Positions 29 to 26,160 of a stretch of 64,000 nt of DNA are shown one piece after another; position 1 is the stretch's first letter; every line of letters starts with the position of its first letter. The notes beneath the pieces were generated by a model. The model did not search any database and was not told the DNA's origin. It saw only the letters and a list, made by a program, of their open reading frames with translations. The translations under genes and the position numbers were made by a program. Source of the stretch: an uncultured Bdellovibrionales bacterium (GTDB lineage: Bacteria; Patescibacteriota; Minisyncoccia; Moranbacterales; UBA2206); the NCBI GenBank assembly GCA_964538685.1, contig CAZIFD010000001.1:13221-77220 (forward strand). The letters are read 5' to 3'.

Positions 29-541
29 ATGACACAAAAAACAAAAATCATCACAGTCAATGACAAGATGCAAAGGGGATACAAATATGAACTGACCGAG
101 CCGATGGGGAAGAATTTTGATCCGGATTTTGGGCCGGAACTCACACCCAAAGAAATGCTTACGCTTGGAGTTTTTGGCGGAAAATATATGACCGATTGCC
201 AAAAGGAATTTCCCGCCGATTGGTTCCGGAAAGCCAAGCTCAATTCCAAGTTTCATGATCCGAAACTTAATTTTTTTGGCGTCAACGCTTCGCAGCCACT
301 TTCGGTCTGGAAAAAGAAAGGTTGGATTTGGGCAGACGATCCCAGAGGTTGGTTCCAATGGTATTGCCGTTATTATCTAGGAAGAAGATGCGAAGATGAC
401 GAGCGACAGATTAAAAGGTGGAAAGCCATCGTCCGGCATATCGCCCAGATAAAAAAGAATTGCCGAAAGGGCGACTTTTCTTGTCGGGCTCGTCAAAGAC
501 AAGCGGTTTTGCATTGGGCGTACGATTCCAGGAAGATGTAG
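29..541 (+). CDS. conserved hypothetical protein (170 aa; Trp/Arg-rich C-terminus)
   Basis: Long ORF with ATG start and no overlapping alternative. I do not recognise a family. Confidence 0.45.
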   Translation: MTQKTKIITVNDKMQRGYKYELTEPMGKNFDPDFGPELTPKEMLTLGVFGGKYMTDCQKEFPADWFRKAKLNSKFHDPKLNFFGVNASQPLSVWKKKGWIWADDPRGWFQWYCRYYLGRRCEDDERQIKRWKAIVRHIAQIKKNCRKGDFSCRARQRQAVLHWAYDSRKM

Positions 542-666
542 GGAGAATGAATATGCTGTTGTTGAACAACGAAATATCTTATTTTCCAATTTCTTCTTTC
601 TTTTGCCAAAAATCTATTTTTCCGCTATACTTAAGGAGTCAGAAAAAGGCAAAATAAAGATAAAAT

Positions 667-1038
667 ATGACACTTAGATCCTATATTTGGGGACTTCGGA
701 TTATTAATCTGATTTCCTTATCTGCTTTGGCTTTGGTAATTATTTTCATTGATCCGGAAAAATCGGGAGTTTTAGGAATAGCTATTTTTTATGCAGTTCT
801 TTTTTTTGCCCTAAGCGGACTTTTTAATTTAATACTTTTGTGGATCAGAAGGTCAACTCTGGGAAGCGAAGCGGCCTTTTCTAGTGTTAATCTAAGTTTT
901 CGCCAAGGAATTCTTTTGGCAATTTTTGTGGTTGGACTTTTGATTTTACAAAGTTTTAGGATTTTAGTCTGGTGGGACGGACTGTTGCTTTTGGGAGGAG
1001 TTTTTCTGGTTGAATTATATTTTTTGTCTAGAAAGTAA
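667..1038 (+). CDS. small integral membrane protein (3-4 predicted TM helices)
   Basis: Hydrophobic 123-aa ORF between two + strand genes. Confidence 0.4.
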   Translation: MTLRSYIWGLRIINLISLSALALVIIFIDPEKSGVLGIAIFYAVLFFALSGLFNLILLWIRRSTLGSEAAFSSVNLSFRQGILLAIFVVGLLILQSFRILVWWDGLLLLGGVFLVELYFLSRK

Positions 1039-1054
1039 TTTTTTTATTTGTTAA

Positions 1055-3079
<2,025 letters not shown>

Positions 3080-3133
3080 GTTTGCTTATTTTTCTCGGAA
3101 AAATTATAATTGAGGAAGATATAAATATAAAAT

Positions 3134-5728
3134 ATGAGCGGTATGGAAAACCAAAAAGAAGAGCGTTCTTTGTTTCGGGGTATGTCCCAAAATAATCTTA
3201 AAATTTCCAAAGAAGAAAAAGAGGGCGGTTTGTTGGTGAGAATGGCTGATTTTATTTTGCGTTTAAGTTTCTTTTTTCTTTTTCTTGGTATCCCGTTATT
3301 TTTTTTGGGAACTTCTTTTCAGGGAATAGCTTTTGAAAAACAATATTATTTCTTTTTCTGGTTTTTAGTAGCACTTATTTCTTGGGCATTTAAGAGTGGT
3401 TATTTGGGCGAGATGAAAATCAGAAAAACTCCGCTTGATTTCCCTTTGCTTGCTTTTTGGTTAGTTTATGTTTTGGCGACAATTTTTTCAGCTGATCGCT
3501 GGCACAGTTTGCTGGGCTTTTTTGGAGATCCTTCGCGCGGATTGATTGGTATCACAGCTCTCATAATGACCTACTATTTGATTTTAAGTAATTTTAACAA
3601 AAAAAATTTTCGCTGGATTTTGTCGGGAATATTAATGTCCGGAAGCATAGTAATAATTTGGACATTGGCGGTGGTTTTTAATTGGATAGGCTTTCTGCCG
3701 GATAAATGGCTGACATATTTTCCGATTAATACTATTGGTTCAATGGGAGGATTGACTTTGTTTTTGGGAGCTTTTATTCCGATTTTGATGATGGAAATAT
3801 TCAGAATTCAAGAAAAAGAGAATAGCAAATTTAAAAAACCACTCTCAATTTTTTGGACAATTTTTATTTTCTTGGACATTCTGGCTATTTTCTCTCTTTA
3901 TTCTTATGCGCCTTGGTTGGCAATTTTGGTGGGCGTAGTTTTGTTTTTGGTTTTTATTTTAGCTAAAATAGTCCGTCCCAGAGGACACTGGACTTTTGTT
4001 TCCATGGCATCTTTCTTTTTGATCTTAGTTGCATTGATGGTTGGACGAGTAAATATTGCCAAAGTCAATTTACCGATAAATGTGAGTGTTCCGTATGAAA
4101 CTTCCTTGAAAATTGCCAAAGAAAGCATTAAAGAAAAATTTTTCTTGGGTTATGGATCGGGAAATTATGGAATGGCTTTTTCCAAAAATTTTCCTGTTGA
4201 ATTTGACAATTCAGGAGTCAGATTTTTTCAGGATAACGGAATTGTTTTGGAGGCAGTTTCTTCTGTCGGAGTTTTGGGCGCAGTCGTTTTGATTGTCTTG
4301 ATACTTACTTTTTTAGGGGTGGTATTGTTTCTTCTGTCTAGGGATAAGGAAAAAAATAAGTTAATTTCTTTGGGTTTGGTTTCTTCAATGATTTGCCTCT
4401 TGGCAGGAGTTGTTTCTCAAAGAACAGAATCTTCAATATTAATTTACACCGTTCTTTTGGGAGCTTTTTCTATGGCGGTTCTTTATTTGGAAAGTAATGT
4501 GGAAAAAGAGTTTTTCACATTGTCGCTCAAGGCATCGCCAAAATTCGCTTTGACTCTGGCTTTTATTTATTTATTAATTCTTTCTTCGGTTATTTTCCTC
4601 TTTGTTTTTTTGGGAAAAATTTTTATTGCTGATATTCAAGCGGGAAGTGCTGTCAGGGAAAGTTCGGTTAGAGAAGACGGTTCTGTTGCCAAAATGTATC
4701 AAGCTGTCAAAAATAATCCTAGAGAAAGTCGCTATTATATGCGATTGGGGCAAGAATATATGTCTCTTACCAATCAAGAAATGCTTAAGCCGGAAAATGA
4801 ACAGGATGTTAATAAAATTCAGAACTATTTGTCTTTGGCGATTCAATTTGGAAAAGTTGGAGAAAGCTTAGCTCAAAAAGATGTTCAGTCTATAGAAGGA
4901 CTTGCCTCATTGTATGAAAACTCTGGTCTTTACATTAAAGATGCACTCAAATCGGCTGAAGATGAATATAGAAAAGCAAGTGAGTTGGAACCAAATAATC
5001 CCGACTTTTATATCAAATTAGGTCAAATAAAACTGAAAATGCTGGAGCAGGGAGATGACAAGCAGGAAGCTAATAAAAAATTAATTGAGGAATCAAAGGA
5101 GCTTTTTCAGAAAGCCATATCGGTTAGAAAAAATTATCCGGTTGCTTATTATAATTTAGCTATTGCTCAAGAAAATCTTGGACAATTGGATGAAGCTATT
5201 GAAAATATGCAAATAGCAATTAACTTGCAAAGAAATAACGCCAATTTCATTTTTAATTTAGCCAGACTTTATCAAACCAGAGGCAAGGAAAATGATGGCA
5301 AGATGGCAGAAAGCTTGTACAAGTTTAATTTAGCCAGACTTTATCAAACCAGAGGCAAGGAAAATGATGGCAAGATGGCAGAAAGCTTGTACAAGCAGAT
5401 TTTAAGTGCCGATCCGAAAGAAATTAATACTCACTTCGGATTAGCCACTCTTTATGAAAAAGAAAGCCGAAAAGAAGATGCAATCAGCGAACTGGAAGAA
5501 GTAAAAAAACTTTTGCCGGAAAATTCCGAAGAGGCAAAGCAGAGAATTGAAAAGATGATTCAAAATATCAAATCGGGAATTCCCAATACTGTAGAAAATT
5601 TAAGAACAGAAAATCCGGAACCGACATCTGAAAATGTTGTTGAAGAAAATGCTCCAACTTCTTCAGCTGAGCCTTTAAATGAAGGAGCAGTTGTTGCTAA
5701 TCCGGATGATTCAATCAATAACCAATAA
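3134..5728 (+). CDS. polytopic membrane protein with C-terminal TPR repeat domain (N-terminal part resembles O-antigen-ligase/Wzy-like multi-TM domain)
   Basis: About 10 hydrophobic helices in the first 500 aa. The C-terminal third contains repeated 34-aa TPR-like units (AYYNLAIAQENLGQLDEAIENMQIAINL...). It also contains a perfect 72-bp tandem duplication. Confidence 0.6.
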   Translation: MSGMENQKEERSLFRGMSQNNLKISKEEKEGGLLVRMADFILRLSFFFLFLGIPLFFLGTSFQGIAFEKQYYFFFWFLVALISWAFKSGYLGEMKIRKTPLDFPLLAFWLVYVLATIFSADRWHSLLGFFGDPSRGLIGITALIMTYYLILSNFNKKNFRWILSGILMSGSIVIIWTLAVVFNWIGFLPDKWLTYFPINTIGSMGGLTLFLGAFIPILMMEIFRIQEKENSKFKKPLSIFWTIFIFLDILAIFSLYSYAPWLAILVGVVLFLVFILAKIVRPRGHWTFVSMASFFLILVALMVGRVNIAKVNLPINVSVPYETSLKIAKESIKEKFFLGYGSGNYGMAFSKNFPVEFDNSGVRFFQDNGIVLEAVSSVGVLGAVVLIVLILTFLGVVLFLLSRDKEKNKLISLGLVSSMICLLAGVVSQRTESSILIYTVLLGAFSMAVLYLESNVEKEFFTLSLKASPKFALTLAFIYLLILSSVIFLFVFLGKIFIADIQAGSAVRESSVREDGSVAKMYQAVKNNPRESRYYMRLGQEYMSLTNQEMLKPENEQDVNKIQNYLSLAIQFGKVGESLAQKDVQSIEGLASLYENSGLYIKDALKSAEDEYRKASELEPNNPDFYIKLGQIKLKMLEQGDDKQEANKKLIEESKELFQKAISVRKNYPVAYYNLAIAQENLGQLDEAIENMQIAINLQRNNANFIFNLARLYQTRGKENDGKMAESLYKFNLARLYQTRGKENDGKMAESLYKQILSADPKEINTHFGLATLYEKESRKEDAISELEEVKKLLPENSEEAKQRIEKMIQNIKSGIPNTVENLRTENPEPTSENVVEENAPTSSAEPLNEGAVVANPDDSINNQ

Positions 5729-5744
5729 ACGAACAAGCGGGCCC

Positions 5745-5773
5745 TTGACAGATTTTCAGGGCCTTGCTAAGAT
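5745..5773 (+). promoter_or_regulatory. candidate sigma70-type promoter (TTGACA-17-TAAGAT) upstream of the rRNA leader
   Basis: TTGACA at 5745-5750, a 17-nt spacer, TAAGAT at 5768-5773. A T-tract hairpin region follows at 5860-5890, so its assignment to the rRNA operon is uncertain. Confidence 0.3.
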
Positions 5774-6341
5774 GATTTTGCGTGCTAAAGAACACTTGAT
5801 GATAAGATTTGTTGAACAATTCAATAGGAAAAAAAGCGGGTGAATTTTAGGTTTTGTCTCTTGACAAAGACCCCGCTCCTGGCGCGGTTTTTTTATTTCT
5901 CAAATTTTGGCTCTGAAACAAATTTTTATTAAAGATTATTAATGAAAACTGTTTCCGCACCAAGCGAACTTTAAAAATTCAGAGGTCTTAATCAAAAGCT
6001 TTCTTTGCTTCTCGCGGAAAGAGAACAGGGTGGGCAAATTTTGATTAGTCTTAAATTAAGCAGTTGGTTTTCTTTGGTGATTACTAACTGCTAATCGAGT
6101 TTAATTTTATGAGCGGTAACACTAATGCATATGGTGGATGCCTTGACTCATGCAAGCGATGAAGGGCGTAGCTAGTTGCGATAAGCTTCGGGGAGTTGCT
6201 AAGCGAACTTTGATCCGGAGATTTCCGAATGGGATAACCCCTCCGACGTTATGTCGGAGATCCATGGCTGAATACATAGGCCATGGAAGCGCACCCTGGG
6301 AACTGAAACATCTTAGTACCAGGAGGAATAGAAATCAATAG

Positions 6342-19768: not shown

Positions 19769-20434
19769 ATGGAAAAATTAACTTCCAAACAAAATATGGT
19801 TTTGGATTGTATCCGAGAATTGATTGATCAAGAAAAAGTCAATCCCACTACTTACAAAGTTCACAAATGTCTTAAGGGACAAGGAATTGAAGTTGGCAGT
19901 CTCAAGGGGACGGTACAAGTGATTGAGGCTTTGGAAAAAAAGGATCTAATCAAAAGAGACAAGGATAAAAAAATTTATTTAGTGGAAAACAAAAGCTTTG
20001 CCAATCTTCGCAATATTTTTTCTATTCCGATGTACGGTTTGGCTTCTTGCGGAGAGGCTTTGGCTTATGCTGAAGACAATGTGGATGGATATCTTCAAAT
20101 TTCCAAAAGTCTTTTCCGGCAGGATGATCCGGCCAAACTTTTTGCGGTTAAGTCGCTGGGAGACTCAATGGACAAGGATCAAATTTCCGATGGTGATTAT
20201 GTGGTTTTTGAAAAGAAAGATGCAGATTTTGATTTTGAGAACAAAATTGTCGTGGCGGTTATCAATGGGATGGCAACCATCAAACGCTACCGGAAACTTA
20301 AGGGAGGACTGATTGGACTTTTTCCAAATTCCACCAACAAAGTTCATCAACCGATCTACTTGGATGAATCCGACTCAATTTTGATTGCCGGAATTTTCAG
20401 AAAAGTATTGCCAGTGAGTTTTGTGAGTTTGTAA
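19769..20434 (+). CDS. lexA: LexA-family repressor (wHTH + S24 peptidase domain)
   Basis: C-terminal VKSLGDSMDKDQISDGDYVVF...NGMATIKRY (Ser/Lys dyad); 221 aa. Confidence 0.8.
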   Translation: MEKLTSKQNMVLDCIRELIDQEKVNPTTYKVHKCLKGQGIEVGSLKGTVQVIEALEKKDLIKRDKDKKIYLVENKSFANLRNIFSIPMYGLASCGEALAYAEDNVDGYLQISKSLFRQDDPAKLFAVKSLGDSMDKDQISDGDYVVFEKKDADFDFENKIVVAVINGMATIKRYRKLKGGLIGLFPNSTNKVHQPIYLDESDSILIAGIFRKVLPVSFVSL

Positions 20435-20553
20435 GTTTTTTAAAAACCGCATCTTATTTTGATTAATCCGAGAGCGGTGTGGATAAGTTCAATTCTTGGC
20501 TTAAAACCTGCTACTTGGCAGGTTTTTATCTTGTGGTATAATAAGCATTACCT

Positions 20554-20569
20554 ACACAATATATAGTGT
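20554..20569 (+). promoter_or_regulatory. NrdR-box-like 16-bp palindrome ACACAATATATAGTGT between the extended -10 (20534-20542) and the nrdR start codon
   Basis: Matches the published NrdR operator consensus acaCwAtATaTwGtgt, as recalled from memory. Positioned to overlap the transcription start. Confidence 0.5.
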
Positions 20570-20591
20570 AAAAAATCCTAAACTTAAATAA

Positions 20592-21044
20592 ATGCTTTGT
20601 CCATTTTGCAATCATAAAGAAACGAAAGTAGTTGACTCCAGGGAAACCAATGAAGGCAAAATTACCCGAAGAAGAAGAGAATGCCTTAAATGTCAGGCCA
20701 GATTCAGCACTTATGAAGAAGTGGAACTTTTACACTTGACCGTTATCAAAAAAAATGGAGAGAAAAAAGAATATGATAAAAATAAAATTGAAGACGGAAT
20801 CAGAAGAGCGTTGGTCAAGAGACCGGTTGGTGAGGAAAAAATTGCCAAGTTGATGGGAGATATTGAATATGCCATTCGGGCTTTGGAAAAATCAGAAGTA
20901 ACCACACGGGAAATCGGAAAAATTGTTCTCAAAAAATTAAAAGAATTGGATGAAGTGGCTTATGTTCGTTTCGCCAGTGTGTACAAATCATTTGCCAGTA
21001 TTGAAAGTTTCAAAAAAGAACTTGATCGTTTGGAAAATGAGTAA
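20592..21044 (+). CDS. nrdR: transcriptional repressor NrdR (Zn-ribbon + ATP-cone)
   Basis: MLCPFCNHKETKVVDSRE... CLKCQARFSTYE; 150 aa. Confidence 0.9.
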   Translation: MLCPFCNHKETKVVDSRETNEGKITRRRRECLKCQARFSTYEEVELLHLTVIKKNGEKKEYDKNKIEDGIRRALVKRPVGEEKIAKLMGDIEYAIRALEKSEVTTREIGKIVLKKLKELDEVAYVRFASVYKSFASIESFKKELDRLENE

Positions 21045-21120
21045 TTTTTATAAATATTTTTTAATTAATTTCAAAAAAGGTACAGTTTGAAGGGGAAACT
21101 GTTAAGACCTAAAAAGAAAA

Positions 21121-23367
21121 ATGGCCAAAACAAAAATCGGGGGAAAGAAAAAAAAGACTCAAAAAAAAGTTGTAAAGGCGGGCGGAAAAGGGATAGTTAA
21201 AAAAGCGATTAAAAAAAAGGGTTTTCAAAATAAGATTAAAAAAATTATCAAAAGAAGTGGCGACACGGTAGCTTTTGAAAAAGGAAAAATTGAAAAGGCG
21301 ATCCAGAAAGCTTTTCAAGCAACTGGTGAAGGTAGTCAAAAAGATGCTAGGGAGGTGGCGGACAAAGTAGTGCGTTTGCTGAACAAGAATTACAAGCTGG
21401 GATACATTCCTCAAATTGAGGAGCTTCAAGATATGACAGAAAAGGTTTTGATGACTTTGGATTTTGATGAAACCGCCAAAGCTTATATTCTGTATCGCGA
21501 ACAGCATCGAAAAATGCGGGAAGCCGAAGAGTCGCTTGATGAAGCTGTGTCTTTGGTAGACAAATATATTGAAGAAATTGATTGGAAAGTTAAGGAAAAT
21601 GCCAATATGGCTTATTCTTTGCAAGGACTTAACAACTATATTTCATCTATTGTCAGTTCAAAATATTGGATGAATCGGGTTTATACTCCGGAAATAAAAA
21701 AGGCTCACGAAAACGGAGATTTTCATATTCATGACCTTCAGCTTGTGGCGGCTTATTGTTGCGGTTGGGATCTTCAGGATTTATTAAGAAGAGGTTTTAC
21801 TGGAGTGGCGGGAAAGGTGTCATGTAAGCCGGCTAAGCATTTCGGTTCAGCTTTGGGACAAATGGTCAATTTCATCTACACGCTTCAAGGAGAGGTGGCC
21901 GGAGCGCAAGCCTTTTCCAATTTTGACACTCTGCTTGCTCCATTGGTCAGATATGATCAATTGTCTTACGAAAAAGTAAAGCAAGAAATTCAATCTTTTG
22001 TTTTTAATATGAATGTTTCCACCCGAGTTGGTTTTCAAACGCCCTTTTCCAATATTACGATGGATATTGTGGCTCCCAAAACATTGGCCAAAGAAGCGGT
22101 GGTTGTTGGTGGCGTTCCTCAAAAAGAAACTTACGGTGATTTTCAAGAAGAAATGAATATGATCAATAAGGCTTTTGCGGAAGTAATGAGTGAGGGAGAT
22201 GCCAATGGAAGAATTTTCACTTTTCCCATTCCAACCTACAATATTGGAAAAGATTTTGATTGGAAAGATGATCGTTTTGATCCGATTTGGGAAATGACTG
22301 CTAAATACGGCATTCCTTATTTTGCTAATTTTGTGAATTCGGATATGGATCCGGAAGACGCTCGTTCAATGTGTTGTCGGTTGAGGTTGGATAACCGAGA
22401 GCTTCATAAGCGAGGAGGCGGACTTTTTGGAGCTAATCCGCTAACCGGTTCTATTGGGGTTGTGACTATTAATCTTCCGCGTTTAGGGCACACTTCCAAA
22501 GACAAGAAAGAATTTTTGAAAAAGCTGAATCATCTGATGGATTTGGCTAAGGAAAGTTTGGAAACGAAAAGAAAAATGGTGGAAGGGCTTACTGATAAAG
22601 GGCTTTATCCTTACACTAAATTTTATTTAGATGCAATCAAAATGAGGCGAGGAGAATATTGGGCGAATCATTTTTCCACTATTGGTTTGGTTGGAATGAA
22701 TGAGGCTTTGCTTAATTTGATTGGGAAGGATATTACCACGAAAGTTGGACAAAAATTAGCTGAAGAAATCTTGACTCATATGCGAGAAAGAATCATTGGC
22801 TATCAAGAAGAAACCGGAAATTTATTTAATCTAGAAGCAACACCCGCTGAAGGAACGGCTTATCGTTTAGCTAAAGCGGATAGAGAAAAATATCCTAAGA
22901 TTATTTTTGCCAACAATGAATCAGTGCTTGAAGGAGCAGAACCATATTATACCAATTCTTCGCAACTCCCGGTTTCTTTTACTGAAGATATTTTTGAAGC
23001 GCTGGATCTTCAAGATAAATTGCAAACCAAATATACCGGAGGAACAGTTCTTCATGGATTTTTGGGGGAAAGAATTTGGGACACGGAAACTACCAAAAAA
23101 TTAATAAGAAAAATTGCCGAAAATTATGCGCTTCCGTATTTTACTCTCACACCAACTTTTAGTATTTGTCCGGTGCATGGTTATTTAGTAGGAGAGCATA
23201 TCACTTGCCCCAAGTGTGTTGTTGAACAAAAAACCGAAGTTTATTCTCGCGTAGTTGGATATATTCGTCCAGTAGAACAATGGAACAAAGGAAAGAAAAC
23301 GGAATTTGGCGATAGAAAGACCTTTTTAGTCAAAGAAGGAGTAAAAGCAACTAAGGGCAAAAAATAA
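21121..23367 (+). CDS. nrdD: anaerobic ribonucleoside-triphosphate reductase (class III RNR) NrdD, with N-terminal ATP-cone, C-terminal Zn-ribbon and glycyl-radical loop
   Basis: ATP-cone IIKRSGDTVAFEKGKIEKAIQKAF. C-terminus CPVHGYLVGEHITCPKC...TEVYSRVVGYIRPV (glycyl radical motif RVxGY). Confidence 0.9.
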   Translation: MAKTKIGGKKKKTQKKVVKAGGKGIVKKAIKKKGFQNKIKKIIKRSGDTVAFEKGKIEKAIQKAFQATGEGSQKDAREVADKVVRLLNKNYKLGYIPQIEELQDMTEKVLMTLDFDETAKAYILYREQHRKMREAEESLDEAVSLVDKYIEEIDWKVKENANMAYSLQGLNNYISSIVSSKYWMNRVYTPEIKKAHENGDFHIHDLQLVAAYCCGWDLQDLLRRGFTGVAGKVSCKPAKHFGSALGQMVNFIYTLQGEVAGAQAFSNFDTLLAPLVRYDQLSYEKVKQEIQSFVFNMNVSTRVGFQTPFSNITMDIVAPKTLAKEAVVVGGVPQKETYGDFQEEMNMINKAFAEVMSEGDANGRIFTFPIPTYNIGKDFDWKDDRFDPIWEMTAKYGIPYFANFVNSDMDPEDARSMCCRLRLDNRELHKRGGGLFGANPLTGSIGVVTINLPRLGHTSKDKKEFLKKLNHLMDLAKESLETKRKMVEGLTDKGLYPYTKFYLDAIKMRRGEYWANHFSTIGLVGMNEALLNLIGKDITTKVGQKLAEEILTHMRERIIGYQEETGNLFNLEATPAEGTAYRLAKADREKYPKIIFANNESVLEGAEPYYTNSSQLPVSFTEDIFEALDLQDKLQTKYTGGTVLHGFLGERIWDTETTKKLIRKIAENYALPYFTLTPTFSICPVHGYLVGEHITCPKCVVEQKTEVYSRVVGYIRPVEQWNKGKKTEFGDRKTFLVKEGVKATKGKK

Positions 23368-23416
23368 ATTTTTTTCTGTCATTCACATATTATTAATAAA
23401 AAACTAACACAAAAAA

Positions 23417-23683
23417 ATGAAAAATGAAAAAATAGTTTGTCATGATTGCGGAAAAGTTTTGAAACACAATGAAGAGTTTATGGCCTATGAATTTGAAGGA
23501 AGAAGTTATGCCAAATGCAAAGCTTGTCATCAAACTGATCCAATGCTTCGAAATGTCAGAAAAACCGAAGTTTATTCTCGCGTAGTCGGCTATATTCGTC
23601 CAGTAGAACAATGGAACAAAGGAAAGAAAACGGAATTTGGCGATAGACAAGTTTTTTCTCTTGGTGAGCCGGCTTGTTGCTAG
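23417..23683 (+). CDS. autonomous mini glycyl-radical protein: Zn-ribbon (CHDC...CKAC) + exact copy of the NrdD glycyl-radical C-terminus (GrcA/YfiD-like spare part for NrdD)
   Basis: 88 aa. Residues ~57-85, TEVYSRVVGYIRPVEQWNKGKKTEFGDR, are identical to the NrdD C-terminus. The underlying ~87-bp DNA (23561-23647) is near-identical to 23230-23326. Confidence 0.6.
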   Translation: MKNEKIVCHDCGKVLKHNEEFMAYEFEGRSYAKCKACHQTDPMLRNVRKTEVYSRVVGYIRPVEQWNKGKKTEFGDRQVFSLGEPACC

Positions 23684-23745
23684 AAAAATTTGAAAAAGAT
23701 GGTGGGGCAATCTTATTTCTGATAAGATTGCCCTGATTTAAAGCT

Positions 23746-24438
23746 ATGAATATTGGAGGTTTTCAAAAATTAACACTGATTGATTATCCGGGAAGATTGG
23801 CCACAACCGTTTTTACGATTGGTTGCAGTTTTCGTTGTCCTTTTTGCCATAATCCGGAATTAATTGGTTTTAATCCGAATCACAACAATCAAGCGGAAGA
23901 AAATTTTTTTAAATTTCTGAAATCCAGAAAAGGAAAAATAGAAGGAGTGTGCATCACTGGCGGAGAACCAACCGTGCAAAACGATTTGATTGAATTTATT
24001 AGAAAAATTAGAAAATTGGGATTTTTTGTGAAACTGGATACCAACGGAACGCGTCCGGATGTTCTCAGAAAACTTTTTCAAGAAAATTTATTGGATTTTG
24101 TGGCGATGGATATTAAAAATTATCTTGAAAAATACGAAAAAACCGTGGGAACTAAGGTTGATTTGGGAAGAATAAAGCTTAGCGTTGAATTGATTAGAAA
24201 TAGTGGGGTAAATTATGAATTTAGAACCACGGTCGTTCCGGGACTGCACACTATCTCTGATTTTACGCGAATTGCGGAGTGGATCGGTGGTTCCAAAGCT
24301 TATTATCTTCAGGAATATCGGGAGGGAAAAATTCTTGACCAAAATCTCAAGAAAAAAACTCGGGGAAAATCAATTGATTTGGAAGAAATAAAAGCAAAAA
24401 TTGAGAAAAATTTTGATAAAATGGGTATTAGAAAATAA
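23746..24438 (+). CDS. nrdG: anaerobic RNR activating enzyme (radical SAM)
   Basis: CSFRCPFCHN (CxxxCxxC) radical-SAM motif, GGEPT; 230 aa. Confidence 0.85.
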   Translation: MNIGGFQKLTLIDYPGRLATTVFTIGCSFRCPFCHNPELIGFNPNHNNQAEENFFKFLKSRKGKIEGVCITGGEPTVQNDLIEFIRKIRKLGFFVKLDTNGTRPDVLRKLFQENLLDFVAMDIKNYLEKYEKTVGTKVDLGRIKLSVELIRNSGVNYEFRTTVVPGLHTISDFTRIAEWIGGSKAYYLQEYREGKILDQNLKKKTRGKSIDLEEIKAKIEKNFDKMGIRK

Positions 24439-24443
24439 GAATA

Positions 24444-24665
24444 ATGCGAATTTATATTAAAGTCATTCCTCGTTCTTCAGAAATAAAAGTGGAAAAATTT
24501 TCCGAGGGAGAATATCGGATAAAACTCACAGCTCCGCCGGTTGAAGGAGAGGCAAACAAACAATTGATGGATGTTTTAGCCAAGCATTTTGGTGTTTCTA
24601 AATCGCAAATTGCGATTGTCGGCGGGAAAAGCACTCGGACAAAAATAGTGGACATATTAAAATAA
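24444..24665 (+). CDS. DUF167/YggU-family small protein
   Basis: IKVIPRSSEIKVEKFSEGEYRIKLTAPPVEGEANKQL...FGVSKSQIAIVGGKSTRTKIV, typical of UPF0235. Confidence 0.65.
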   Translation: MRIYIKVIPRSSEIKVEKFSEGEYRIKLTAPPVEGEANKQLMDVLAKHFGVSKSQIAIVGGKSTRTKIVDILK

Positions 24666-24693
24666 TTTTTTAGCTTAAATTTTTCCAAGGAGG

Positions 24694-26160
24694 GTGGAAA
24701 CTTTGACTAAATCCAAAATTTTTATTTGGTGGGTTTTATTTTTTCTGGGAGGAGTTTCTCTGGTGTCTTTTTGCTATCCGAAAAAAATCAGTTCTATTTT
24801 TTTGGGAATTATTTTTATTTTCAGCTTAATTCTGATTTGTGTTTTTTGGGATAAAAAAAGAATAGTTTTTGGAGGTCTTGGATTTTGGTTTTTTTTGATT
24901 GGAATTATTATTTTCAATCAATCAGTTTCTGAGATCCAAAAATTCAACCAAGAAAAAGAGTTTTCCGGAGAAGTTAGAATTGTTAGAGAACCGGAAAACA
25001 AAAACGAAAAAAAGAGAATTGTGGCGGAAAGCGAAGACAATTTTCGGATTTTTATTTTTGAAAATCAATATTCCAATTATTCCTATGGTCAAATTTTGAA
25101 ATTGGATTGTCAATTGGAAATTCCTGAAAATCAAAAGGATAGTCGGTTTGATTACCGGATGTATTTAGCTAAAGATAAAATTTTTTATCTTTGTCAAAAA
25201 CCGAAAATAGAAATCATTTCCCAGGGGCAAGGAAAATTTTTGTATGCGACCTTAATAAAAATTAAAAATAAATTAGGAGAAAAAATTGAAAAAAGCCTTC
25301 CTTATCCTGAATCCGGATTGCTTTTTGGCCTTCTTTTGGGAGGTGATTCAAAAGTTTCCAAAAATCTTAAAGAGGATTTTTCTCGGACAGGACTGAGTCA
25401 TATTGTGGCTGTCTCCGGTTATAATGTGGCGATTATTGCTGATTATTTGATGGTAGTGGGAATATTTTTTGGGCTTTGGAGACAACAAGCTTTTTGGCTT
25501 GCAATTTTGGGGATAACGCTTTTTGTTTTGCTGATTGGCTTTCCGTCCAGTGCTGTCCGGGCTGGAGTGATGGGTGGGCTGTTGCTTTTGGCGATGAAAG
25601 AGGGGCGAATAGCCAATTCAAAAAACGCTATTCTTTTTTCGGCCGCTGTTATGTTGGCTTTCAATCCATTGCTTCTTCGCTACGATGTTGGTTTTCAACT
25701 TTCATTTTTAGCGACTTTGGGAATCGTTTACTTTTATCCGATTTTGGATGAATATCTCATCAAAAAACAGAAGCATTGGAATTTTGTCGGAGAACTGTTG
25801 GGCTTGACTTTGGCGGCTCAAATTTTTGTTTTTCCAATAATTTTCTATAATTTTGAAAGTTTATCTTTGGTTTCTCCGCTGGCTAATTTATTAATTTTAC
25901 CCATCATTCCGCTCACGATGCTTTTTGGATTTTTCTTGATTGTTTTTGGTTTGGTTTTTCCTCCGCTGGCAACCGTTTTTTCTTGGTTGGCATTTTTGCC
26001 ACTAAAATATGAAACTTTAATCATTCGCTGGCTTTCCGGTTTTCAGTGGGCTTCAGTCAAAGTATCCTTTTCCTTTTGGGGAATTATTATTTGGTACTTG
26101 GTTCTAAGCGTTTTCTTTTTTATAATTAACAAAAAAACAAAATGGTTAAAAGAAAAATAA
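24694..26160 (+). CDS. comEC: ComEC/Rec2 competence channel, membrane domain (DUF4131 + Competence); GTG start with AAGGAGG RBS
   Basis: LSHIVAVSGYNVAIIADYLM, multiple TM helices. Ends 3 bp after an A7 run where a +1 nt change fuses it to the following MBL-domain ORF. Confidence 0.8.
   Translation: METLTKSKIFIWWVLFFLGGVSLVSFCYPKKISSIFLGIIFIFSLILICVFWDKKRIVFGGLGFWFFLIGIIIFNQSVSEIQKFNQEKEFSGEVRIVREPENKNEKKRIVAESEDNFRIFIFENQYSNYSYGQILKLDCQLEIPENQKDSRFDYRMYLAKDKIFYLCQKPKIEIISQGQGKFLYATLIKIKNKLGEKIEKSLPYPESGLLFGLLLGGDSKVSKNLKEDFSRTGLSHIVAVSGYNVAIIADYLMVVGIFFGLWRQQAFWLAILGITLFVLLIGFPSSAVRAGVMGGLLLLAMKEGRIANSKNAILFSAAVMLAFNPLLLRYDVGFQLSFLATLGIVYFYPILDEYLIKKQKHWNFVGELLGLTLAAQIFVFPIIFYNFESLSLVSPLANLLILPIIPLTMLFGFFLIVFGLVFPPLATVFSWLAFLPLKYETLIIRWLSGFQWASVKVSFSFWGIIIWYLVLSVFFFIINKKTKWLKEK

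Follow-up and report, generated by a model that had tools for sequence, protein, structure and literature searches.

Glycyl radical enzymes are irreversibly destroyed by oxygen and, to our knowledge, the spare part GrcA (YfiD) of pyruvate formate-lyase (PFL) offers the only known route for their repair. Could the class III ribonucleotide reductase (RNR) NrdD count on a similar module? The question is raised by a locus in a 64,000-nucleotide stretch of contig CAZIFD010000001.1 (positions 13,221 to 77,220 of the forward strand; the window from here on), from an uncultured bacterium of the Moranbacterales lineage, where an 88-aa open reading frame (ORF) sits between nrdD and the gene of its activase, nrdG. 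We refer to this ORF and its product as the small gene and the small protein. Our comparative analysis indicates that it probably encodes an autonomous and exchangeable radical module of NrdD, activated by NrdG, which would serve as a spare or alternative part in this genome and as the sole radical subunit in a sister clade.

According to a June 2026 review, spare parts have been identified for no glycyl radical enzymes other than formate lyases, and the existence of others is still to be determined (PMC13450708); the same statement had been made in 2021 by Andorfer et al., who raised the same possibility (PMC8683613). A first-pass annotation of the window, made from the letters alone, was aware of no equivalent described for NrdD, in agreement with the review, and our searches of the open-access literature brought up neither a spare part for NrdD nor an NrdD that is split. 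The locus bears directly on a question that the field has stated openly, that of spare parts beyond PFL, and provides a concrete candidate for the one glycyl radical enzyme on which DNA synthesis in strict anaerobes depends.

A free-standing radical domain and its Gly-less partners

The NrdD encoded in the window is complete, with matches to the Pfam NRDD (PF13597; E 5e-199) and ATP-cone domains and to positions 2-682 of the 684 in the NCBIfam model NF006126 (1084 bits). Its finger loop carries the double-cysteine motif SMCCR (aa 416-420, nt 22366-22380), which was present in all NrdDs of the sampled loci where our motif search located the finger loop (93/103 ORFs), and its zinc site resembles the CxxxH-x6-CxxC site of the T. 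maritima enzyme (PMC4493059). The first-pass annotation had rightly pointed out that the ORF between nrdD and nrdG keeps a zinc ribbon of its own and a C-terminus identical to the glycyl-radical loop (Gly loop) of NrdD. The small protein reads MKNEKIVCHDCGK...CKACHQ...KTEVYSRVVGYIRPVEQWNKGKKTEFGDR...PACC (also written MKNEKIVCHDCGK-x20-KCKACHQTDPMLRNVRKTEVYSRVVGYIRPVEQWNKGKKTEFGDRQVFSLGEPACC), and 29 residues (KTEVYS...GDR) are the same in both proteins. Pfam aligns it to positions 510-562 of the 562 in NRDD, that is, zinc ribbon plus Gly loop (E 1.6e-12; 47.4 bits, gathering score 26.2). The full-length NrdD models TIGR02487 (38.8 bits, cutoff 326) and NF006126 (28.9 bits, cutoff 548) are failed, with only their last ~50 positions matched, and no model specific to the small protein exists in NCBIfam, Pfam or PHROGs.

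The RVVGY motif occupies residues 55-59 of the small protein, with 29 residues after it, and an alignment of 40 homologues leaves as invariant C8, D10, C11, K33, C34, C37 and the pattern EVY-RVVGYIRP-QWN-K-E-R. The order of elements is that of the C-terminal domain of NrdD (zinc site, buried Gly loop with RVVGY, surface tail), but in a separate polypeptide, with a CxxC-x22-CxxC ribbon instead of the CxxH-x9-CxxC of the window NrdD, 17 residues rather than 10 between the ribbon and the Arg of RVVGY, and a Cys pair in the tail, where that of NrdD is Lys-rich (nt 23320-23364). At least two cysteines in the extreme C-terminal tail (ACC, CxC or CxxC; for example CGC or CxSC) are found in 97 of 117 close homologues (P0001-P0120; P numbers stand for protein clusters or homologues, and L numbers for sampled genome, metagenome or IMG/VR loci). 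The tails of the NrdDs themselves are Lys-rich and devoid of Cys, and two truncated NrdDs (P0283 and P0302) terminate in CC on their own. The Cys tail is absent in Minisyncoccales-type (L014, L019, L024), Desulfobacterota and phage members of the family. An AlphaFold2 (AF2) model built from the 40-sequence alignment has a mean predicted local distance difference test (pLDDT) of 77, with the zinc ribbon as its best predicted part (86-93), two strands (51-54 and 59-62) that flank Gly58 and a helix thereafter (63-75). A profile search of PDB sequences with a family alignment gave no match at E<=0.01.

The initial description of this product as GrcA-like stands as an analogy, but not as homology. 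Like GrcA of E. coli and Y06I of phage T4, this protein is small, stands alone and has a C-terminal half that copies the radical domain of a large enzyme, with RVxGY ~25-30 residues from the C-terminus; its activation by the activase of the parent and its replacement of an O2-cleaved domain are presumed, and phage-encoded versions also exist, as in the case of Y06I. On the other hand, the parent is NrdD and not PFL: a Pfam scan at E<=0.1 gave NRDD alone, with no PFL-type Gly_radical domain (PF01228), and BLASTP against E. coli GrcA, of the InterPro family IPR011140, gave E = 1.2 with the Gly motif unaligned. Moreover, the N-terminal half of GrcA is disordered, whereas that of the small protein is predicted as a folded zinc ribbon and, unlike GrcA, the small gene lies inside an nrdD-nrdG operon, undergoes gene conversion with its parent gene and would provide the sole radical domain of a whole clade, something not known for GrcA.

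This last difference comes from relatives of the window whose NrdD has lost the radical glycine. In L006-L010 and L083, NrdD ends 13-30 aa after a zinc ribbon that is kept even though the Gly loop is gone; RVxGY is missing, with relics of the loop such as EQKTEVFLKVGEE, CPKCVIEQKTEVFLKVGEEEL-stop and CPKCKAEQSSTVYLKVVMAD-stop, and the small gene next to it encodes a perfect loop, with nrdG thereafter. A six-frame scan detected a single RVxGY motif in each 10-kb Gly-less locus, on the small ORF, and no hidden frameshifted Gly loop past the truncated nrdDs. Among the 120 clusters at 90% identity that lie nearest to one Gly-less NrdD, 43 have likewise lost the motif, and two of these, placed on 5 and on 10 contigs of which one measures 557 kb, show the order nrdR/nrdD/small (96 or 105 aa)/nrdG. 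The cores of these NrdDs are 76-93% identical to each other, with saturated synonymous divergence (dS) and a nonsynonymous-to-synonymous ratio (omega) of 0.03-0.07. Since the activase is kept, the core is constrained and the sole radical glycine of the 10-kb loci belongs to the small protein, the simplest conclusion is that in the Gly-less clade the small protein would supply the radical in trans. The idea of a replacement in trans was already present in the first-pass annotation and is supported both by this clade and by the linkage to stress genes in other lineages (see below); overlooked there were the conserved C-terminal Cys pair and the fact that the small protein is the sole radical domain in relatives, and so is more than an emergency spare.

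Oxygen scission at Gly713 would leave an NrdD ending 13 residues past CPKC, approximately at the natural truncation point, so that the Gly-less NrdDs may be regarded as natural mimics of the oxygen-cleaved enzyme and, in this sense, as nature's own key deletion experiment. Fusion of nrdD to the small gene by readthrough or frameshifting was considered and rejected: nrdD and the small gene do not share a frame in the window or in L006, L007 and L008, several stops separate the two in L010, and only in L009 is there a single in-frame stop. Another feature of the Gly-less clade is that the Lys-rich tail is found on the small proteins instead (L009, L010, L245, L247).

Independent splits were also found in other phyla, in L063, in an archaeon (L053) and in Desulfuromonadales (L059/L074). 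The first of them, from a high-GC bacterium (252-4807), shows a Gly-less nrdD, an unrelated 481-aa ORF (2318-3763), a 65-aa mini glycyl radical domain (GRD) without zinc ribbon (3804-4001) and nrdG, a split that arose independently of the one in the Candidate Phyla Radiation (CPR). Three more apparent splits (L068, L071, L073) were set aside as possible frameshift errors.

Table 1. Coordinates of the features described at the nrd locus of the window
Feature	Position	Strand	Description
nrdR	20592..21044	+	Zn-ribbon and ATP-cone repressor (Pfam Zn_ribbon_NrdR and ATP-cone); first gene of the nrdR-nrdD-small-nrdG block
nrdD	21121..23367	+	Class III ribonucleotide reductase catalytic subunit, 748 aa
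NrdD zinc site, CPVH-x9-CPKC	23167..23217	+	aa 683-699
Repeat copy 1, NrdD glycyl-radical loop KTEVYSRVVGYIRPVEQWNKGKKTEFGDR	23229..23316	+	RVVGY; radical Gly713 codon 23257-23259
Small gene	23417..23683	+	88 aa; free-standing glycyl radical domain with zinc ribbon, Gly loop and Cys-Cys tail
Zinc ribbon of the small protein, CHDC-x22-CKAC	23438..23527	+	C8, C11, C34, C37; longer than the ribbon of NrdD
Repeat copy 2, Gly loop of the small protein	23560..23647	+	radical Gly58 codon 23588-23590
C-terminal Cys87-Cys88 pair	23675..23680	+	
Hairpin of 14 bp, GGGGCAATCTTAT...ATAAGATTGCCC	23704..23734	+	followed by TGATTT and preceded by AAAGATGG; RNA fold -21.1 kcal/mol, z = -5.0
nrdG	23746..24438	+	Radical-SAM activase of NrdG2 type (Pfam Radical_SAM and Fer4_12; TIGR02495 NrdG2, 219 bits, cutoff 131)

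Gene conversion and breadth of the family

How did two nearly identical loops come to lie so close to each other? The two copies of the direct repeat, 331 nt apart, match at 86 of 88 nt, and the near-identity proposed in the first-pass annotation was right, with 2 substitutions, although the first copy ends at 23316 and not at 23326. Both mismatches are synonymous (GTT/GTC for Val, GGA/GGC for Gly), the flanks of the repeat are unrelated, and no match arose in 100 shuffles of the window that preserved its dinucleotides. The suggested creation of the gene by a duplication of ~87 bp, however, does not hold for a family that is ancient and present in several phyla and phages. To judge from the comparison of genomes, the 86/88 identity marks a recent tract of gene conversion across two paralogous segments that are themselves old.

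In this regard, the 87-nt Gly-loop segments of nrdD and the small gene were compared in nine genomes that keep both. Within-genome identity was 85/87 in the window, 80/87 in L014, 76/87 in L019, 75/87 in L003, 74/87 in both L005 and L024, 72/87 in L004, 67/87 in L001 and 63/87 in L002, with a mean between-genome identity of the segments of 0.71 (maximum 0.84), and the partner in the same genome was the nearest DNA relative of each segment in 6-7 of the nine. Moreover, the close relative L244 has its own tract of 86/87, which is just 72-75/87 identical to that of the window, and the 80/87 of L014 likewise counts as an independent tract, each genome having a sequence of its own. From the within-genome identities and these separate tracts, the two segments have been homogenised repeatedly and independently, and the remainder of the small gene (longer ribbon, different linker and tail) stays distinct from nrdD. 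A related observation is the nrdD of L249 (38-2445; P0273), whose tail after the Gly loop is that of a small protein (...VADSACGC) and is directly followed by the usual hairpin of the small gene (see below); it has the appearance of a fusion that arose when the stretch between both Gly-loop repeats was deleted, and the repeats appear to mediate deletions.

A search of 5.8 billion proteins with the small protein gave 467 matches, of which the best 120 were all 80-113 aa long; the named homologues among those 120 come mostly from Candidatus Moranbacteria or Parcubacteria and are annotated as 'anaerobic ribonucleoside-triphosphate reductase' or hypothetical. The family comprises at least 150 clusters at 50% identity, and two CxxC pairs upstream of the Gly motif were found in 114 of 151 representatives. 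An exhaustive search of 1.84 billion cluster representatives with a hidden Markov model gave 4062 matches at E<=1e-3 and 564 at E<=1e-10, with the best 150 all of 42-159 aa. Judged by this variety of sequences, the family is old and diverse, across several phyla and phages. Small genes evolve with an omega of 0.09-0.2 where dS could be computed. The two closest relatives that could be placed on contigs, L241 and L244, encode small proteins 75% and 78% identical to that of the window: L241 keeps the same lexA-like/nrdR/nrdD/small/nrdG synteny, and the contig of L244 begins inside nrdD, with the 3' end of this gene followed by the small gene and nrdG.

The search of other genomes for small RVxGY ORFs adjoining nrdD, which the first-pass annotation had proposed, was productive in many independent assemblies. 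The nrdR-nrdD-small-nrdG order of the window recurs in L001-L010, L241, L245 and L247, and the small gene lies on the same strand as neighbouring nrdD and nrdG in the window, in these same loci, in L014, L019 and L024 and in eight metagenome loci. Some Moranbacteria-type genomes (L038, L077) have nrdD without the small gene. Desulfobacterota (L012, L017, L018, L021, L025-L031, L033-L036) and Methanophagales (L037) carry a stand-alone subfamily of 110-125 aa, which has one more helix at the N-terminus (MT.ERLHELFDEN...) and whose ribbon is longer (CHDC-x35-45-KCxxC). A conserved partner gene was looked for beside the stand-alone genes of Desulfobacterota, where we found only local synteny (S1 protein, AsmA).

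Stand-alone small genes, unlinked from nrdD, occur in 69 genome and metagenome loci. Homologues of Fur-family regulators, Fe/Mn superoxide dismutase (SOD), rubrerythrin or hemerythrin lie near 17 of these 69 loci against 0 of 91 other non-viral loci (Fisher p = 2e-7), counts made with seed sequences from CPR, which have a lower sensitivity in other phyla. The best NCBIfam matches of the Fur-family neighbours are PerR models (E 1e-27 to 1e-29, versus 1e-9 to 1e-14 for Fur models), below the equivalog cutoffs. Saccharibacteria and other CPR show operon-like PerR-like/small/SOD blocks (L092 3561-4913, L093, L099, L117), and further stress-linked CPR loci (L032 4593-6102, L011/L013 ~4980-5856, L023 4974-5778) include some with rubrerythrin or hemerythrin after the small gene. 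One metagenome-assembled genome of Desulfobacterales has a complete nrdDG (L048) together with a small gene that is not linked to it (L028), as one would expect if the small gene provided a spare part.

Among viral sequences, a small Gly-loop ORF stands alone, without an nrdD within 5 kb, in 64 of the best 80 IMG/VR loci (L161-L240). Some of the phage versions keep the zinc ribbon (L161-L173, 77-120 aa) and many lack it (43-80 aa), the latter being close to the mini-GRD of L063, with the consensus NGDLLLDNGxVIPA..RTxTEVYSRVVGYLRPVSQWNKGKKAEWADR. A few contigs were checked with PHROGs: the ORF of L192 (4838-5029) lies between the genes of the terminase large subunit and the portal, L161 has an RNA ligase and a polynucleotide kinase, and L165 (ORF 5004-5264) an SbcC-like nuclease. 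Two copies of the mini-protein were seen on one phage contig (L180/L231; L180 copy at 4932-5126).

Proposed mechanism and competing explanations

Altogether, these data suggest the following scenario. NrdG would abstract a hydrogen from Gly58 of the free small protein, and the Gly loop of the activated module would then enter the barrel of NrdD and face the SMCCR finger loop whenever the C-terminal loop of NrdD itself is absent or destroyed. Attack of O2 on the Gly713 radical would cut NrdD 13 residues after the zinc site and, after such a scission, a part of 10 kDa would be remade rather than an enzyme of 85 kDa. As the NrdD of this genome retains its own loop, the small protein would here serve as an alternative radical module or a spare one. 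The spare would be kept matched to its socket by recurrent gene conversion between the Gly-loop segments, with the 86/88 tract as the latest patch. We infer activation, docking and rescue, all of them, from comparative genomics. In this line, the GRD of P. copri NrdD consists of a Zn site, a buried Gly loop and a surface tail, and behaves as a unit of high mobility that stays nearly rigid (PMC11226230), and the Zn domain of NrdD has been conjectured to be the docking site for NrdG (PMC4493059); the published GRD structures are consistent with a module able to exist alone.

With some reserve, we also favour a wider view, in which an unrecognised family of NrdD-type GRDs in CPR, Desulfobacterota, archaea and phages would provide the first spare parts outside PFL, a two-subunit class III RNR with a disposable 10-kDa radical subunit would have appeared in a large clade related to Moranbacteria and independently elsewhere, gene conversion would keep the partners compatible, and phages would carry the module to sustain deoxynucleotide synthesis in the host. 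If so, a class III RNR can be a two-subunit enzyme with a separate radical subunit, reminiscent of the class I RNR beta proteins (NrdB/NrdF) in that, in the Gly-less relatives, the stable radical would reside on a small docking partner, although neither fold nor chemistry is related: a radical S-adenosylmethionine (radical-SAM) activase would make a glycyl radical, in place of the metal/tyrosyl cofactor, and the radical loop would be inserted directly into the barrel, with no long-range radical transfer. Such a system would partly explain the oxygen tolerance of minimal-genome CPR bacteria, which often have this enzyme as their visible RNR, it would turn the PerR-linked and phage-borne versions into new oxygen-defence and auxiliary genes, and it would offer a 10-kDa substrate for studying how NrdG recognises and activates its target.

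Several observations weigh against a spare radical module. The small gene sits here inside the nrd block, with no promoter of its own predicted by a consensus promoter/terminator scan of the window locus a context that does not by itself point to induction by oxygen in this genome, and the linkage with oxidative-stress genes comes from Saccharibacteria and other CPR, not from Moranbacteria-type loci. At the structural level, the Gly-loop half of the AF2 monomer is only moderately confident (pLDDT 57-73), as expected for a loop that would be ordered only after its insertion into the barrel, fold searches with the model returned generic zinc ribbons only, and a docked complex would hold two zinc ribbons. 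Finally, the conserved C-terminal Cys pair is not accounted for by a pure spare-part role.

Could the small protein then be the regular, primary radical subunit in this genome too, disposable by design, with the loop of NrdD redundant and on its way to being lost? The 43 Gly-less clusters among 120 would mean that the trans arrangement is fully sufficient, and a small gene co-transcribed within the nrd block under no separate predicted promoter, with a Cys pair that the NrdD tail lacks, suits such a role. We nevertheless regard it as unlikely, because the NrdD loop is intact here and in 15 type-A loci, some Moranbacteria-type genomes do with nrdD alone, and a conversion that keeps both loops identical would be pointless for a dead one. 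The Cys tail is also the starting point of a quite improbable proposal, in which the small protein would be a regulator or decoy that competes for NrdG or fills the NrdD barrel to limit the radical load, or whose tail would pass reducing equivalents on to the active site with its two cysteines. The tail is conserved as CC, CxC or CxxC and has a counterpart in the truncated P0283 and P0302, and this NrdD belongs to the MCCR lineage, which is able to use thioredoxin (PMC9669993). The idea of a redox shuttle similar to those of classes I and II is attractive by analogy: some class II RNRs reduce their active site through a Zn finger and a terminal Cys pair, and class I alpha subunits have such a pair as well (PMC9669993), so that a zinc ribbon followed by terminal cysteines and a disulfide-forming active site are shared features, although the small protein is an independent polypeptide that bears the Gly loop as well. 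A decoy, however, leaves unexplained the Gly-less clade, where some protein must carry the radical, and a tail that is missing in Minisyncoccales-type, Desulfobacterota and phage members cannot be the core function of the family; it is compatible with a radical module as an added function.

That the 3' end of nrdD underwent a partial tandem duplication and left the small ORF as a dead relic, or that the ORF is an artefact of a mis-expanded repeat in the assembly, seems very improbable to us. Taken alone, a near-perfect 88-nt direct repeat at such a short distance does resemble a recent duplication, but its flanks are unrelated, and the longer and distinct zinc ribbon is conserved in hundreds of sequences from independent assemblies and several phyla; both Gly loops recur with their unique flanks in many of those assemblies, which removes the doubt about the assembly raised in the first-pass annotation, and the gene is under purifying selection and intact in the closest relatives, L241 and L244, and not absent or disrupted there. 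Equally hard to defend is a role for another glycyl radical enzyme, a thought invited by the 69 stand-alone loci, where the members of the family are encoded far from nrdD. Detectable homology is solely to the C-terminus of NrdD, and none was found to the PFL-type domain or to GrcA; moreover, the loop is homogenised with that of nrdD, the Gly-less partners found are all NrdDs, and a six-frame scan of the window for R[VIL]xG[YF] gave only the two loops and three chance matches. A radical module devoted to NrdD is the explanation that we retain.

Genetic context and minor features

Between the small gene and nrdG lies a hairpin (Table 1) that is part of a conserved element (23695-23740 in the window), with the form AAAGATAG(C/T)GGGGCAA, a hairpin of 12-16 bp and TTGCCCC(T)GATTTT. 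It was detected in at least 11 related loci (L001-L004, L006, L008-L010, L241, L244, L247, L249), which share the outer stem and differ in the inner one, where the changes are compensatory. The hairpin has no match in Rfam, which gave none in the whole 20400-24800 region, and was left unflagged by the terminator scan, since its T-run is too short for the rule of the scan. Its probable role is that of an intrinsic terminator or attenuator, which would set nrdD and the small gene apart from nrdG.

At the other end of the block, a gene for a LexA-like S24 peptidase (19769-20434) lies directly upstream of nrdR, and the same neighbour in L241 and L247 suggests a conserved lexA-nrdR-nrdD neighbourhood in the clade of the window. 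The NrdD of the window bears a Lys-rich N-terminal extension of ~40 residues (MAKTKIGGKKKKTQKKVVKAGGKGIVKKAIKKKGFQNKIKK) before its ATP-cone (nt 21121-21240). Finally, some of the sampled loci (L043, L113, L145, L146, L153, L200, L201, L205, L207) have NrdD ORFs of 1026-1698 aa, in which several hundred residues interrupt the match to the NrdD of the window, and which are probably the result of intein insertions.

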